The notes below the pieces were generated by a model, which saw only the letters and a list, made by a program, of their open reading frames with translations, searched no databases and had not been told where the DNA came from. The translations under genes were made by a program, and so were the position numbers. Below are positions 8,394 through 51,008 of a stretch of DNA of 64,000 nucleotides, in pieces. Each line of letters begins with the position of its first letter. Within the stretch, counting starts at the first letter, position 1. Source of the DNA: Candidatus Nomurabacteria bacterium (GTDB lineage: Bacteria > Patescibacteriota > Minisyncoccia > Phycocordibacterales > UBA5272); the NCBI GenBank assembly GCA_028286645.1, contig JAQBRF010000004.1:205192-269191 (forward strand). Direction: 5' to 3'.

Positions 8394-9164
8394 ATGAATG
8401 AAATATTTAGCTTCATCTCTCACTATATTTATGTTTATATCTGGGTTATATTTACGACCTTTATAAATATAATTGCTCCGGTGTCGGGGTCCGCTGTTGT
8501 AACTCCGGTCATTGCTTATGCTACTTCTCCGCAAAGAGCCGTTGGAATAGCTGCCTTCTTGTTTTTTCTTTCGGCAATCCACCGTATACATATGTTTAGA
8601 AAAAATATTCTTTCAGAAAAGAAAAATATTGACATAATTAAACATCTTCTGCCCTTTTCTATTGTCGGAGCAGTGGCGGGGGGATTCTTTGTGGCTTATG
8701 TAAATACGAAAGTTTTAGCAATCATAATCGTAGTCGTATCTTTATACTACATATTTAGAACACTTGTTGTTTTATACAAAAAGAACAATGAACAGAAAAA
8801 AACAAATAAATACGGAGGAATATTTATAGGTATTCTATCTGGATTCATGCAGGGCTCTGGTATGTCTGGAGGTGATATACGAGCAAATTATTTAAGATCT
8901 ATTGTCTCAGAAGTGAATGTGCGGGCAGTTAGCAGCGTCGTGGGGCTGGTTAATTTCTTTATCGCAGGAAGTATTTTGTTTTTACACAATAAGCTTACGA
9001 GGTTTGATATAATCTTTGTTATAAGTATATTCCCTTTTATTATTCTTGCGCAACTTTATGGAAAAAAGTTCTTGGATAAAATGAAAGACAGAAATGCAAA
9101 GATTTTAGCTATATGCTTATCAATATTTGGAATCGTGCTTCTTACTTATAAATACTTATTATGA
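8394..9164 (+). CDS. TauE/SafE-like permease family membrane protein
   Basis: Polytopic membrane protein with two Gly-rich repeats (PVSGSAVVTP.., GILSGFMQGSGMSGG). Start uncertain. Confidence 0.45.
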   Translation: MNEIFSFISHYIYVYIWVIFTTFINIIAPVSGSAVVTPVIAYATSPQRAVGIAAFLFFLSAIHRIHMFRKNILSEKKNIDIIKHLLPFSIVGAVAGGFFVAYVNTKVLAIIIVVVSLYYIFRTLVVLYKKNNEQKKTNKYGGIFIGILSGFMQGSGMSGGDIRANYLRSIVSEVNVRAVSSVVGLVNFFIAGSILFLHNKLTRFDIIFVISIFPFIILAQLYGKKFLDKMKDRNAKILAICLSIFGIVLLTYKYLL

Positions 9165-43738: not shown

Positions 43739-43814
43739 GGGCCCTTAGCTCAATTGGTAGAGCGCCTGTTTTGCACTCAGGAGGCAAGCGGTTCGAATCC
43801 GCTAGGGTCCACCA
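43739..43814 (+). tRNA. tRNA-Ala (anticodon TGC)
   Basis: Acceptor gggccct/agggtcc with G3:U70; D-stem gctc/gagc; anticodon loop ttTGCac; T-loop ttcgaat; CCA encoded. Confidence 0.9.
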
Positions 43815-45285
43815 CAGAAGATGAAAGAGGCTGAAAGGCCTCTTTTGTCTTGAAAATAGAGGCTACTTCTGCGGTTTCATAATTTCCTTCGTTATACACC
43901 ACGCCCTGAGGAAAATGAAACCATTGTAGCTTAAGTTTCTTATCGAGATCTGCCTCTTTCCATATTGAGCTTGGAGATTTGAAGTATTCGCTGGCGACAT
44001 CAAACGCTTCTTCAACATTAATATGTGGTCCTTCATAAGAGATAAGTTTCGTCTGAGCCTGTGTAATATCATTTCCTACTAGTTCGAGCTGCTCTTTTAA
44101 AAGATGATCTGGTATCGTTCCTTCAATGTTCTTCGTTATAAGTATGGTTTGTCTCTCCTTAAGTAATGCGATATGTGATTCTAAACGCCTCTGCTCTTCG
44201 CTTCCCTTGTATATAGCCTTATCGAGTTTCTCTTTTACTTTTATCTTTAGCTTTTCCAGTTGCTCTGAGGAGAGCGTGAACTGGTCCATATACTTCATAA
44301 AACTTTCTTCAAATTTTTGCTTTGGGAAATTGGAATCCTTAGCATGAAAGCGATAATAAGGATATTTTGCCGATCTACCACTGCACCAACTTCCAGTGAG
44401 TTTCCTACCATCTTTGTTCGTAACAAATCTCCTTAGAGGAAAATCCTCGCTATCTAATTTGTAATGTGACATCTTCTTCCCACGATTCTTTAGTACCAGT
44501 TGCACTTGATTAAAAAGACTCTCATCAATTACTGACTCGAAAGCTCCCATGTGGGATTCTCCGAATTTTTCTATGCAACCATAATACAATTTGCTACGTA
44601 TGAGTTTATAGAAATATTGCTTGCTAAGTGGATTTCCATTCTTAAGACGCAGACCTTTTTCTGTCATAATCTTTCTTACTTCTTCCAATGAATGTGTATT
44701 TTTTGCAATAAGTATGAAAGTCTCTTTTACAAATGGTGCCATATGGCTTTTAGCAATAGTTGCCATTCCGGCCGTACGCACGTTCTCATAACCTATTGGT
44801 GCCATCCAAACATATCTCCCATCTCGCACCGCATCTCTCATTCCATTCGTACATCGTTCTGCTCTTACTTCGTTGTCGAATTGTGCAACATTAGCTAGCA
44901 TGTTTTCCATAAATCTTCCTGAAGGATTATTTTCAAAAGCTTCGCTTACAGATCTAATTTCTACGCCATATCTTTTAAGAAGAATACGTAATTGACTATA
45001 ATCATCCGTGTTCCTAGACAGACGATCTATTTTGTAAGAAATTACTGCACTAATGCGATTTTTTTTATCTGAACAGAAAAAAAGCATTTTTTGAAGTTCG
45101 GTTCTCATTGTCGTTTTCGCACTTTCGCCTTGTTCTACGAATACTTGTGCTACTTCATATCCATGCTTCAATGCATATTCTTTGCAAAGTTTTTCTTGAG
45201 TATTAAGACTATTCCCTTCATCAACTTGTTCTTTAGTCGATACTCTACAATAGAGCACTGCTCTTTTTTGATTTTGTTCTTGCAT
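43777..45285 (-). CDS. large serine recombinase (resolvase/invertase-type catalytic domain + recombinase domain + zinc ribbon/coiled coil)
   Basis: N-terminus AVLYCRVSTKEQ (catalytic Ser), ...YKIDRLSRN..., R/E-rich recombinase domain; 502 aa. Last ~13 codons are the reverse complement of the tRNA-Ala 3' half. Confidence 0.8.
   Translation of the reverse strand: MQEQNQKRAVLYCRVSTKEQVDEGNSLNTQEKLCKEYALKHGYEVAQVFVEQGESAKTTMRTELQKMLFFCSDKKNRISAVISYKIDRLSRNTDDYSQLRILLKRYGVEIRSVSEAFENNPSGRFMENMLANVAQFDNEVRAERCTNGMRDAVRDGRYVWMAPIGYENVRTAGMATIAKSHMAPFVKETFILIAKNTHSLEEVRKIMTEKGLRLKNGNPLSKQYFYKLIRSKLYYGCIEKFGESHMGAFESVIDESLFNQVQLVLKNRGKKMSHYKLDSEDFPLRRFVTNKDGRKLTGSWCSGRSAKYPYYRFHAKDSNFPKQKFEESFMKYMDQFTLSSEQLEKLKIKVKEKLDKAIYKGSEEQRRLESHIALLKERQTILITKNIEGTIPDHLLKEQLELVGNDITQAQTKLISYEGPHINVEEAFDVASEYFKSPSSIWKEADLDKKLKLQWFHFPQGVVYNEGNYETAEVASIFKTKEAFQPLSSSVVDPSGFEPLAS
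43824..43850. terminator. hairpin terminator after tRNA-Ala
   Basis: aagaggc-tgaaa-ggcctct followed by tttgtc. Confidence 0.45.
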
Positions 45286-45710
45286 GTTTTCTTTTGCGGT
45301 CTAGATAGATGTCCACTAACACTTCAGCGAGGTAATCTATGGAATCATCTTCAGATACGTGACTACTAATAAAACCCGGAGGGGAACTACGATACGGTGC
45401 GTTGTCGCTACACAAAGACGCTCGTAGGACCCCTTCGGGCTTCGTTTTGTCACCATATGCGTCTTTAGTGCGTAGCTTTTTCATTTTATCTCTCAATGTG
45501 AGTGAATATCTATCCAAATCGGTGGATAGTGTTTCGCTGGCGAAATGTCGGAAAACTGTCTACAGATTTCAAGCGAGTTCTCTGAAATCCCTTCGATATA
45601 AATACTTTTTCTGCAATGACACTCTTTTAATTTTCCGAGTACAGGAGCTTAAGAAAAGACTCTTGCGGGGTTATATCGTTCTACACATTACGAGAGTGTC
45701 CTGGAGTAAA

Positions 45711-46031: not shown

Positions 46032-46700
46032 TTAGTAATTTCTTTTGACGGTTTTTTCACTCCATTTGAGCAGTCTGTCCTGGGTAGCGCAAGCGGCAGC
46101 AACTCTTTCATTCGTTCGCCCTATGGCGTCTCTTATACTTCTCTGTTCACTTTCTATTTTTTCCTTATCTATTGATTCAGAAGACGTTCCTGTAATTGCT
46201 TCATGTAGAATTTCCCAGTCGACAACTTGACCTTTTTTACAATGAAGAAAAAGATGCTCCAAAATAGAGTATTCTTTTTTATATTCAGGAATATCGATGA
46301 CGACATCCCCAATAATGAGCTTCGATGTCTCGGGCTCAAAGACAATTTTATGTTCAGCCAAGTTTAGTTTCTTTGCAGGTGATTTATTGGAATCATTAAC
46401 AAGCTTATCTTCATCTATCTTGCATACAGCATATAACCAGTCCCCGTTTTCACGTGAATAAACTCTTTCTTCAAAACTCATTACAAGACCATCTCTCTGC
46501 AATTTTCGGAGGGCCCTGATTTTTTCTTCATATTCATCTTCTAAAGAAGTCTCCATAAAACTTGAAGAAACTTCCGATAAAAAATACTCATACTGGGGAG
46601 AAGCTTTAACACTTCCTCTTTTTAAAAATTCACTCTTAAAAGAAGCAATAATGTCGGTCATATAGCTAGTTTCCGTCCCAACAATTTTTTTTATGTCCAT
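46032..46700 (-). CDS. hypothetical protein (island cargo)
   Basis: 222-aa ORF, no confident motif. Confidence 0.35.
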   Translation of the reverse strand: MDIKKIVGTETSYMTDIIASFKSEFLKRGSVKASPQYEYFLSEVSSSFMETSLEDEYEEKIRALRKLQRDGLVMSFEERVYSRENGDWLYAVCKIDEDKLVNDSNKSPAKKLNLAEHKIVFEPETSKLIIGDVVIDIPEYKKEYSILEHLFLHCKKGQVVDWEILHEAITGTSSESIDKEKIESEQRSIRDAIGRTNERVAAACATQDRLLKWSEKTVKRNY

Positions 46701-46785
46701 TGTTTTGGCAAGAAATTATTATTCCAAATGATCGTTTAATTATACCATTTAACCATTTATTAATTGGAAATTACATGATAAAATA

Positions 46786-46935
46786 GGCCTGCAGACAAGT
46801 GGATATTAATAAGGCGTATAAACGGATTTTGGGCGTTGCTCGTAGCCAGCATTGGCATCCTAAGTAGGAAACATATGAGCAACGGCAACGCTGTTCACTT
46901 GTCTGCACCTCTTGGGGTGCCTATTTTGTTTTTGT
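46786..46935 (+). promoter_or_regulatory. structured leader with antiterminator/terminator alternative upstream of small membrane protein gene
   Basis: Long stem ggcctgcagacaagtg...cacttgtctgcac enclosing nested hairpins. Its 3' arm overlaps the 5' arm of the terminator gcacc-tcttgg-ggtgc followed by ctattttgtttttg, 36 nt before the ATG at 46971. Confidence 0.4.
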
Positions 46936-46970
46936 GGCCTCAAGCTTAGTCAACAATCTTATAACACAAC

Positions 46971-47234
46971 ATGCTTCGTAAAATCATAGGAATCCTCATT
47001 TTTATACTTGTCATATACGGCACGTTCTTAATTCATCCACTGCTTGGGAGTATTGTCGTTCTGACAATCCTTCTTCTTATCCTATCGTTTGGGCACATTA
47101 AAAAATATGTGAAGGAAAGTAATATGACAGAAGATGAAAAAATCAAAAGAAAAATATTTGATGAAGTTTTGGACAAAAGAAGCAGGAGAATGGCTGAGGA
47201 AAGAGAGGAGAAAGCCGTTAGTAACCTACAGTAA
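46971..47234 (+). CDS. small membrane protein with charged C-terminal tail
   Basis: Two TM helices, then KR/E-rich tail. Confidence 0.4.
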   Translation: MLRKIIGILIFILVIYGTFLIHPLLGSIVVLTILLLILSFGHIKKYVKESNMTEDEKIKRKIFDEVLDKRSRRMAEEREEKAVSNLQ

Positions 47235-49664: not shown

Positions 49665-49967
49665 GAGTGTGCTTTATACTTCATAGGTAGATTGAAAACG
49701 CAATACAGAAGCTCGCTTGGTAGGGATACCAAGCATCGCCGAGCGACCGACACCACGAAGTAGCACCGAAATCCTTTAGACGGGCATTCTAGCGGGAACA
49801 ATCAAATGTTCCATGCTGGCAATCCACTAGTTATGGGAACACAGTAGCAATACTGCCGTTCCCGTGAGAGTGTCGGTCTAAGGGATTTTTCTTTTGTCAT
49901 CTAATCTTCAACCATAATTACGAGAAGCTTTCAGATTAGATTTGTGCAGCTAACACCGAATAATAAT

Positions 49968-50006
49968 TGGGTGGTAACTGGACGAATCTAGCAACAGGTT
50001 CGTCCA
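49968..50006 (+). terminator. intrinsic terminator
   Basis: ctggacgaa-tctagcaacagg-ttcgtccag followed by tttttgttt. Confidence 0.55.
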
Positions 50007-50116
50007 GTTTTTGTTTAACCGCCGTTTTCCTACATAAAAGGTGAGCGGTTCAGGGTGCAGAAGTCCTTATGCTGCTGCTGGCAGGACAACCCTCGGGGAA
50101 GATTTGAAACGACATC

Positions 50117-50317
50117 ATGTCTACTCAAAATCCCGTCTGTACATGTGCAGACATCTGCGTAGCTTACGTAACCCGAAATGGTAAACGGCGCTATGCTTCA
50201 ACATATGGTCATAAGTGCTGGCCTATTAAAGATAACCGTTCTTGCGCACTTCATAGCAAGAAAGCAAAAACCCCATCACAAGTTGTGACAGGATCTATGC
50301 TTAATCTAATCGCTTAA
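50117..50317 (+). CDS. small Cys-rich hypothetical protein (GC-rich)
   Basis: 66 aa, C-x-C-x3-C ... C ... C spacing suggests a zinc ribbon. Confidence 0.3.
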   Translation: MSTQNPVCTCADICVAYVTRNGKRRYASTYGHKCWPIKDNRSCALHSKKAKTPSQVVTGSMLNLIA

Positions 50318-50535
50318 GGAGTTTATACCTCCTGTGGCCCTAACATCCCGTAAGGGGTGTTTTGTATTCTAAGTATATCCAGTAGCAAGTCCATCGCAAA
50401 AGGATAACTACGGACCATTACTCTACACTTCTCAAGACGAAAAAGCAACTCTGGTTATGCCAGTTCTGTTTTCCTTGAAAATCCAAGAAAGATACTCCAA
50501 TTCTTTAAGCATTCGGTTTATATTTAAATTACCAG

Positions 50536-50592
50536 GGTCCACTAACAAAAACGAACTCAGGCCATAGGCCTGTTTTTGTTAGTGGACCCGTA
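50536..50592. repeat. long perfect hairpin
   Basis: gggtccactaacaaaaac-gaactc(aggcc ata ggcct)g-tttttgttagtggaccc is an 18-bp stem with a nested mini-hairpin. Confidence 0.6.
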
Positions 50593-50733
50593 AAGCACAA
50601 GAACTGCTTCTTGTGCGGATTCGAAAGCGGCAGGCATATTTCACTAGTAAGTGAAATGACGAGGAGGGGCCGGCGAGTCCGACGAACGGCGGTGAGAAGG
50701 AACTTGTCGGAGAAATTCCGCAGGGATCTACAG

Positions 50734-50761
50734 TTGACAAAATCTTTATTTATGCTAAGAT
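50734..50761 (+). promoter_or_regulatory. sigma70 promoter
   Basis: TTGACA-N16-TAAGAT upstream of the ATG at 50791. Confidence 0.5.
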
Positions 50762-50790
50762 GGGTTTGTCTTATTATTGGAGATCGGACA

Positions 50791-50958
50791 ATGATCAAAA
50801 CCATTTTCACGTTCGCCGTTGCAAACGCCCTCGGCCTGGCAATGATGATCTATTTTGACAAAAAGAAAAAGCGTCCGATGAGAAATCCAGCAATGTACAC
50901 AGTGGTGTATCTCATTGCTACCGCATTGGATGTGTCGATTGTTCACTTCGTTCTTTAA
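50791..50958 (+). CDS. small membrane protein (55 aa)
   Basis: RBS ggag 9 nt upstream; MIKTIFTFAVANALGLAMMIYF...; terminator follows. Confidence 0.4.
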   Translation: MIKTIFTFAVANALGLAMMIYFDKKKKRPMRNPAMYTVVYLIATALDVSIVHFVL

Positions 50959-50963
50959 TGCAT

Positions 50964-51008
50964 CCCGCCGCAAGCAATAGACACGCTTCGGCGGGTTTAT
51001 TGTTTTAG
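50964..51008 (+). terminator. intrinsic terminator
   Basis: cccgccg...cggcggg followed by tttattgtttt. Confidence 0.6.

Follow-up and report, generated by a model that had tools for sequence, protein, structure and literature searches.

Background

In the pbuE/ydhL adenine riboswitch, which is a transcriptional ON switch, the 3' strand of the first helix (P1) is shared with the terminator, and in antitermination of the RAT/LicT type the antiterminator helix overlaps the 5' arm of the terminator by a few bases. In phage lambda, Q antitermination acts on the short '6S' leader of PR'-tR' before the holin gene S, and the phages P4 (CI RNA) and P1/P7 (C4 RNA) use small RNAs as immunity factors. 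Here we describe an RNA that has features in common with each of these systems. It is encoded on the plus strand at 46790-46934 of a stretch of 64,000 nucleotides from a Candidatus Nomurabacteria bacterium (GenBank assembly GCA_028286645.1, contig JAQBRF010000004.1, positions 205,192 to 269,191), hereafter called the window, where it lies in a mobile island. Four copies of this RNA are known, namely, the one in the window, one in a metagenome-assembled genome (MAG) of Candidatus Gracilibacteria (L116), one in a sister island of the window island (L176), and, probably, a more distant one in another sister island (L109). A preliminary description had taken the stretch for a ligand- or protein-controlled attenuator in which an outer stem and a terminator are mutually exclusive upstream of a small membrane protein gene. 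As judged from its sequence, the stretch does encode a structured RNA, which has a promoter and a terminator of its own. Our tentative preference is that it serves as a promoter-proximal terminated leader at the head of the transcription unit that carries the cargo of the island; how leaky the terminator may be, whether there is any regulation, and what the biological role may be are matters that we infer.

The order of the elements at this locus, which is a promoter, a junction fold closed by P1, a terminator that uses the 3' strand of P1, and a gene, is that of pbuE/ydhL. In pbuE/ydhL, however, P1 is a short and marginal helix and most of the aptamer is open to invasion by the terminator, whereas in the window RNA only 3 to 6 outer pairs are involved, and there is no evident ligand or known class. 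As with the lambda '6S' leader, what appears to be a constitutive promoter is followed by a short terminated structured leader before a small membrane protein gene in a mobile element, but, unlike in lambda and LicT, the island showed no protein of the Q, N, or LicT type and there is no sequence similarity. Like the immunity RNAs of P4 and P1/P7, the window RNA would be a small stable RNA at the regulatory region of an integrative element, and sister elements of the window island have a gene for a helix-turn-helix (HTH) domain protein at its position; those RNAs, however, act via short complementary target sites and none was found near the window RNA. The msr-msd region of retrons also has 12-nt inverted repeats at both ends and a G right after the 5' repeat, but no reverse transcriptase gene adjoins any of the four copies (by Pfam in the window, L109, and L176, and by lists of open reading frames (ORFs) in L116) and a retron was, therefore, rejected.

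LOOT RNA (RF03000) is a candidate small RNA from a comparative study (PMC5737381), the main text of which does not discuss it. It occupies the same position in the sister island L178 (7090-7211, minus strand, 77.6 bits), the only examined sister island with an Rfam match at this position. Like the window RNA, it is divergent from an operon that ends in a homologous serine integrase, a co-oriented gene for a small membrane protein (103 aa, DUF6804) comes after it, and it is made of several hairpins, with a length of about 120 nt. Unlike the window RNA, it has four consecutive hairpins and no closing P1. The LOOT model, whose gathering threshold is 46.4 bits, did not match the window at E up to 10, and the model of the window family reached no more than 11.7 bits (E about 0.9) at the LOOT locus of L178. 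LOOT looks like a positional analogue and not like a member of the family.

The RNA unit and its fold

The elements of the RNA, its promoter, and the ORF that follows are:

46776-46784, plus: extended -10 promoter TGATAAAAT, found by reading, 5 nt upstream of the first base of P1
46790-46934, plus: conserved RNA unit, from the region of the transcript start to the end of the terminator U-run
46790-46804, plus: 5' arm of P1, pairs with 46893-46907
46813-46817 with 46888-46892, plus: P2, GGCGU with ACGCU
46820-46829, plus: P2a, a weak and variable hairpin, AAA-CGGA-UUU, read by comparison with the relatives
46834-46844 with 46874-46884, plus: P3, 11 bp, CGUUGCUCGUA / UAUGAGCAACG
46845-46856, plus: hairpin P3a, GCCA-GCAU-UGGC
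46858-46869, plus: the whole of hairpin P3b, UCCU-AAGU-AGGA
46893-46907, plus: 3' arm of P1, of which the final 3 nt, GCA (46905-46907), are the first 3 nt of the terminator stem
46905-46934, plus: intrinsic terminator from the terminator scan, stem GCACCU/GGGUGC with loop CUUG (46905-46920), then CUAUUUUGUUUUUG
46971-47234, plus: ORF of 87 aa with its ATG at 46971, two hydrophobic segments, and a tail of charged residues; read-through probably reaches it

The unit is about 140 nt long in the window and about 135-145 nt across the family. P1 has 12 Watson-Crick pairs (46790-46801 with 46896-46907) and grows to 15 pairs by a G.U, an A-U, and a U.G pair (46802-46804 with 46893-46895). Within P3 there is a three-way junction with the hairpins P3a and P3b and the junction strand AAAC (46870-46873). 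P2a is missing from the window's own minimum free energy (MFE) fold and is weak in the window and L176; a hairpin at its position is found in the own MFE folds of L116 (AAAAA-GCGA-UUUUU) and L109 (ACCGA-UUUU-UCGGU). In all copies the G+C-rich hairpin of the terminator stands directly before the U-run, as is expected of an intrinsic terminator. Folding of the exact unit (46790-46921) gave an MFE of -51.2 kcal/mol compared to -34.9 ± 3.8 kcal/mol for shuffled sequences (z -4.3), and none of the 200 shuffles equalled it; z was -2.9 for the looser stretch 46780-46975, and -5.7 and -7.2 for the units of L176 and L109, respectively.

The stems and nested hairpins that the preliminary description had pointed out are present in the sequence, and the terminator that it had placed before the ATG at 46971 was found by the terminator scan. 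The outer stem had been drawn too long; the 12 pairs of P1 hold but the ggcc at 46786-46789 is unpaired, lies outside the conserved unit, and would be upstream of the transcription start. Other candidates were considered and rejected. The outer pairing AAAAUAGGC/GCCUAUUUU in the MFE fold of 46780-46975 is not part of the RNA because it takes in the -10 box and is not conserved in the relatives, and an ORF of 37 aa (46836-46949) is not regarded as coding because its frame is broken by 2-nt indels in L116. By eye, a hammerhead-like core was also rejected because the CUGAUGA box is absent.

In all four copies an extended -10 box of the form TGnTAnnnT is found exactly 5 nt before P1 (TGCTATAAT in L116, TGGTATAAT in L176, and TGTTACAGT in L109). 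Because the distance from the -10 box is fixed, the transcript probably starts at 46790-46791 and its 5' end would be the 5' arm of P1. The conserved unit is delimited by its own predicted promoter and terminator, as is expected of a small RNA gene. It was also observed that genes in the Nomurabacteria window have no Shine-Dalgarno sequence and that many have a TGnTATAAT-like box 6-7 nt before the ATG (examples are near 8394, 12152, 16326, 55688, and 60937); from this spacing and the lack of Shine-Dalgarno sequences it appears that mRNAs in this Nomurabacteria genome are mostly leaderless.

Relatives of the RNA

The Rfam search and the search for covariation in homologous islands that had been proposed in the preliminary description were both carried out. 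Rfam 15 had no match for the window, whether at the gathering threshold or at E up to 10, and likewise no known class matched the L109 RNA. Nothing similar was found by BLASTN in plasmid and phage collections. The flanking proteins were met only in the MAG that the window comes from and count as orphans, so that relatives were sought in DNA. A scan of 185,579 species genomes for both arms of P1 gave one true homologue, L116, whose RNA is 85% identical to that of the window and whose gene context differs from that of the window. The same scan also matched Prevotella MAGs (L113-L115, L117-L120, and L122) in multi-copy palindromic arrays of GCAGACAAG / GACAAGC-type short repeats, which are tandem repeats unrelated to the CPR (candidate phyla radiation) RNA.

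A covariance model was built from the window and L116 copies and it found L176 and L109. The scores were 176 bits for the window, 177 for L116, 143 for L176, and 22 for L109 (E about 0.006-0.013). The RNA of L176 is 79% identical to that of the window, and the integrases of the two islands are 65% identical. The match in L109 is weak but full-length; its sequence is largely different and its helices are in the same order, and we regard it as a probable distant copy. Homology of the window with L116 and L176 begins at the first base of P1 (46790) and ends at about 46932 in the U-run, and in the flanks of the unit similarity is no greater than that of shuffled sequence. The RNA was not found in the sister islands L110, L111, L112, L179, L180, L181, and L182, and there is no second copy within the 64-kb window. 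Scans of viral contigs with DNA patterns yielded nothing, or chance seeds only, as checked by BLASTN; an invariant 18-mer had 49 matches, all by chance, in 241 million records of JGI metagenomes; and integrase-based scans of viral contigs gave one distant relative, which lacks the RNA. The family is either rare or else too divergent for scans with exact words. All known copies (n=4) sit in CPR bacteria and we call the family confined to mobile DNA, where the cassette appears to move between distant CPR classes (Nomurabacteria and Gracilibacteria). No description of the RNA was found in Rfam 15 or in the full-text literature on CPR structured RNAs, Patescibacteria leaderless promoters, and RNAs or elements linked to serine recombinases. 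It appears to be an undescribed RNA family of a familiar general kind with four known members, borne by mobile elements of CPR/Patescibacteria that integrate at tRNA genes and code for a large serine integrase.

Covariation and strand

In a structure-blind MAFFT alignment of the three close copies (window, L116, and L176) all 120 of 120 pair cells are standard pairs. Paired columns vary at 12 of 80 positions, every time with the pair preserved, compared to 24 of 51 for unpaired columns. P1 of L176 carries four full compensatory changes (A-U to U-A, G-C to C-G, A-U to G-C, and G-C to A-U) and one change from U-A to U.G, and other one-sided changes keep the pairing. In P2 a G.U pair is A-U in L116 and L176. 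The core formed by P3 and the junction, along with the 3' strand, is almost invariant among these three copies. When L109 was added, 14 of 40 pairs were changed on both sides and 96.9% of the cells paired, counts that are inflated because this alignment was fitted to the model structure; they include 8 of the 14 counted pairs of P1, two compensatory pairs in P2, and three in P3. As controls for the same alignment, sliding gave 34-41% pairing and none of 500 shuffles reached the observed value. The own MFE fold of L109 contains P1 (11 bp), P2, P2a, P3 (11 bp), the apical hairpins, and the terminator. Covariation in homologous islands was, thus, found as compensatory P1 changes in L176, and more of them with L109.

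The two strands are not equivalent. On the plus strand 155 of 160 cells pair, including 16 G.U pairs, as against 139 of 160 on the complement, and the MFE is better on the given strand by 2.7-11.7 kcal/mol in all four copies. Covariation together with this G.U asymmetry argues for an RNA that is read from the plus strand of the window and not for a DNA palindrome.

Overlap of P1 with the terminator

P1 and the terminator stem share 3 nt in the window (46905-46907) and 6 nt in L109. The terminator is identical in the window, L116, and L176; in L109 its stem is longer, GGGUACACCC/GGGGGUGCCC, and is followed by U6. The overlap is, therefore, conserved across two lineages that are divergent in sequence. 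The preliminary description had put it at gcac; the overlap itself stands and is kept in L109 but it is the three bases GCA and not four, because C46908 has no partner in P1. For transcripts that end at the terminator stem, the MFE fold in all four copies has the full P1 and a truncated hairpin of 4 bp off the U-run, and the conformer with the full terminator is less stable by 1.1-4.3 kcal/mol across the four copies. In the window it is 0.7-1.7 kcal/mol above the MFE, depending on which transcript end is used. With a start 2 nt further in, the fold with the full terminator is the MFE in three copies and is 4.7-5.9 kcal/mol more stable than the terminator-less one in all four.

For the window, 'mutually exclusive' was too strong a description of P1 and the terminator since only 3 of the 15 P1 pairs compete. 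The competing pairs are the outermost 3-6 of a helix of 12-15 bp and are more than 9 bp from the junction core. The folding energies suggest that the overlap amounts to a minor contest between P1 and the terminator where the end of a long helix frays, and not to a choice between all-or-none folds. Because the competing pairs are far from the core, a metabolite bound there could hardly control them; a protein, the choice of the start site, or constitutive leakiness is more plausible as the means of control. From the proposal of a ligand- or protein-controlled attenuator there remain, then, the structured RNA, the overlap, and the co-oriented ORF, but no known riboswitch class is matched and the core is far from the overlap.

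Downstream open reading frames

Each of the four copies is followed by a co-oriented ORF, which starts about 35-40 nt beyond the U-run. The 87-aa ORF of the window, with its two hydrophobic segments and charged tail, is as it had been described before, and it is an orphan in protein sets of 5.8 billion and 1.8 billion sequences. At this place L176 has an uncalled ORF for a hydrophobic peptide of 43 aa, which aligns with the N-terminal 30 aa of the 87-aa ORF (BLASTP E 3e-7, motif G-x-F-x-x-H-P-x-x-G-x-I-V), and L116 has a 111-aa membrane protein with three segments. In L109 the N-terminal part of a type III-like mod gene is downstream. This mod gene (N6/N4 methyltransferase; L109 4204-4700, minus strand) seems to be split into an N-terminal frame of 52 aa, which is the 60-aa gene of the locus record, and a main ORF of 431 aa, and the split could be due to a frameshift, phase variation, or an assembly error. 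By reading, a TAnnnT box is absent from three of the four spacers, including the one between the terminator and the ATG in the window. Since the spacers mostly have no such box, the ORFs probably depend on read-through from the promoter of the RNA.

Proposed role of the RNA

If the RNA is a terminated leader at the head of the cargo unit, the sequence of events may be as follows. RNA polymerase would start about 6-7 nt after the TGnTAnnnT box and the 5' end of the transcript would be the 5' arm of P1. The first 118 nt or so would fold as a rod made of P1, an internal loop, P2, P2a, P3, and the three-way junction. The terminator would come directly after, and to reach the U-tract it would need the last 3 nt (6 in L109) of the 3' arm of P1, so that the 5' end of the transcript and the 3' arm of the terminator would compete for the same few bases. 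At equilibrium the full P1 along with a truncated hairpin that is set back from the U-run would be slightly favored. The majority of transcripts would stop at the terminator and give a stable small RNA of about 140 nt, and a tunable fraction would read through into the cargo, which is a small hydrophobic protein in the window and the restriction-modification mod gene in L109. If this ratio is regulated, a protein or the state of the 5' end would be a likelier regulator than a metabolite. In the window the read-through would run antisense into the convergent vsr / HpaII operon.

Such a cis-acting role is slightly preferred over a trans-acting one because the overlap is conserved, the ORFs are co-oriented, and the ORFs apparently lack promoters. 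Several points weigh against it. The start site, the termination efficiency, and the read-through have all been deduced from sequence. What is conserved as a cassette is the RNA alone, and an independent small RNA would suit this just as well. Not all of the downstream ORFs are homologous, the 111-aa protein of L116 being without detectable similarity and that of L109 being a mod fragment. In the window, a weak TATAAC box stands 5 nt ahead of the ATG of the ORF and could be its own promoter. There are only four copies and three of them are closely related; the fourth, L109, rests on a weak model score (22 bits) along with its position and architecture, and was aligned by fitting as described above. 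Lastly, the neighboring genes have no family assignments and no cognate binding protein was identified. If the proposal holds, the locus would provide a small and testable model of termination control in organisms with mostly leaderless mRNAs. The genomes of CPR/Patescibacteria are tiny and largely unannotated, and the regulation of mobile elements in them is almost uncharted.

Alternative explanations

Nearly as likely as a leader is that the RNA is a stand-alone small RNA of an immunity or other regulatory type that acts in trans and is made beside divergent promoters, in which case the terminator would simply end its gene and the ORF would be an unrelated neighbor. The conserved cassette runs exactly from promoter to terminator with nothing conserved beyond, the L116 copy is in a different gene context, and the RNA folds into a closed rod whose 5' end is paired, a shape that is common among stable RNAs. 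In addition, the equivalent position in sister islands holds either LOOT, whose Rfam type is 'Gene; sRNA' (L178), or an HTH_17 gene (L110, L112, and L180), but this equivalence is an analogy of location only. A small RNA of this type would be expected to have a target. No complementarity of at least 8 nt recurs at the same position of the RNA with its own divergent operon or with the downstream region; this negative covers 400-700 nt on either side, distant targets not having been searched. Duplex energies gave cognate pairs no advantage. Such a role would also leave unexplained the overlap of P1 with the terminator and the ORF that is always co-oriented.

A broader proposal, which we think unlikely, is that structured RNAs of this family or LOOT are interchangeable and replace the HTH gene in CPR elements, acting either as an RNA switch or immunity factor, or as an antitermination leader that is controlled by a factor. 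If it were true, the defence and membrane cargo of the element would be set by such an RNA and LOOT, which is an orphan, would have its first functional context. Were the equivalence of position to hold, two orphan RNAs would be tied to one role at the head of a cargo unit with restriction-modification and small membrane proteins.

A small-molecule riboswitch of a new class would be an ON switch in which a ligand at the junction stabilizes P1, blocks the terminator, and thereby turns on the small membrane protein. The core is conserved in sequence while P1 covaries, the terminator and the 3' strand of P1 have bases in common in two lineages of divergent sequence, and small membrane proteins are downstream in three of the four copies, all of which would suit a riboswitch. 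However, a P1 of 12-15 bp is stable without a ligand, and the pairs that compete with the terminator are just the outermost 3-6, at a distance of more than 9 bp from the core. Moreover, no known class is matched, the family occurs very rarely and is restricted to mobile DNA, and the downstream genes are functionally incoherent, that in L109 being a restriction-modification mod gene. We, therefore, regard a riboswitch as improbable.

The mRNAs of type I toxins often have strongly folded 5' regions, and the 43-aa hydrophobic peptide of L176, which is homologous to the N-terminus of the window ORF, could be a membrane toxin with the RNA as its untranslatable 5' leader or as the antitoxin. The module is in mobile DNA, as would suit such a system. 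There is, however, no antisense overlap and no complementarity of at least 8 nt with the coding or start region of the peptide, L109 has no such peptide, the 111-aa protein of L116 has no detectable similarity to it, and PADLOC gave no match, which makes a type I toxin-antitoxin-like system very improbable.

Finally, an element that acts at the DNA level is hardly credible, whether as an origin of single-strand replication or of transfer, as a site of recombination, or as a small palindrome that transposes. The block is an imperfect palindrome that folds on both strands, and among the relatives of the mobile element that contains it some have a Prim-Pol gene or seem to be circular. However, its 16 G.U pairs are kept on one strand only, and its complement loses pairing and folding energy in all four copies. 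The block also includes a unidirectional terminator with a U-run, and its distance to a -10 box is constant. No further copy occurs in the window, and the Prevotella matches are unrelated tandem repeats.

The island and its relatives

Other features of the island are:

43739-43814: tRNA-Ala gene
43777-45285, minus: large serine recombinase (integrase), whose 3' end overlaps the tRNA gene in antisense
Between the integrase and the RNA, minus: small genes of 90, 78, and 222 aa (the last is 46032-46700)
46739-46747, minus: extended -10 box TGGTATAAT of the 222-aa gene, found by reading; it is divergent from the promoter of the RNA and stands back to back with it
Downstream of the 87-aa ORF, convergent with it: operon of Vsr, HpaII endonuclease, and C5-methylase

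In the window, L176, and L109 the RNA is divergent from the first gene of an operon that ends in the integrase gene. In L110, L112, and L180 the same position is taken by the HTH_17 gene, which is followed by a methyltransferase gene. The equivalence of position among these islands is, as stated above for the small RNA, an analogy of location. The 222-aa neighbor of the RNA is an orphan and its single relative (L002) is without such an RNA. PHROGs, PADLOC, and Pfam gave no functional leads for the island proteins.

Several minor observations concern the integrase region. The 3' end of the integrase gene is antisense to the 3' part of the tRNA gene in the window (43777-43814) and also in L109, L110, L112, L176, L178, and L182, and it appears that the 3' half of the tRNA coincides both with the attachment site and with the place where the integrase gene ends. 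A second copy of the tRNA-Ala 3' end was not found in the window and the far boundary of the island was not located. A conserved long inverted repeat, AAACCCGGAGGGG ... CCCCTTCGGG, is present in the window (45372-45442), L179 (9810-9928), and L182 (870-974). It is just upstream of the integrase start and inside an overlapping ORF of 88-90 aa, and could be the core of an attachment site or an RNA structure in the integrase leader. A small ORF just upstream of the integrase gene in the window (45245-45517, minus strand) has the motif D-x-L/I-D-Y-L-A-E-x-x-V-x-I-Y, and an ORF with this motif recurs in L116 (1031-1192, plus strand; tblastx E 5e-4), where it is not beside an integrase gene. It may code for an excision or directionality factor, or be what is left of such a gene. 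In L181, a contig of 10,408 bp, the genes of the operon wrap around the ends of the contig (8292-10407, then 3-2066) and end with the integrase, an arrangement that points to a related element in circular, excised, or episomal form.

A second structured region is in the same island at 49690-49900 (plus strand), divergent from the start of the methylase gene. It has an MFE of -81.7 kcal/mol (z -7.4) on the plus strand as against -68.9 kcal/mol (z -3.4) on the minus strand, and is a long G.U-rich hairpin that ends in GGGAUUUUUCUUUUGU. It has no match in Rfam and no relative among the CPR loci that were compared. The surrounding stretch from 49700 to 51000 is poor in ORFs and somewhat richer in G+C, and it contains a perfect hairpin of 18 bp at 50535-50589.

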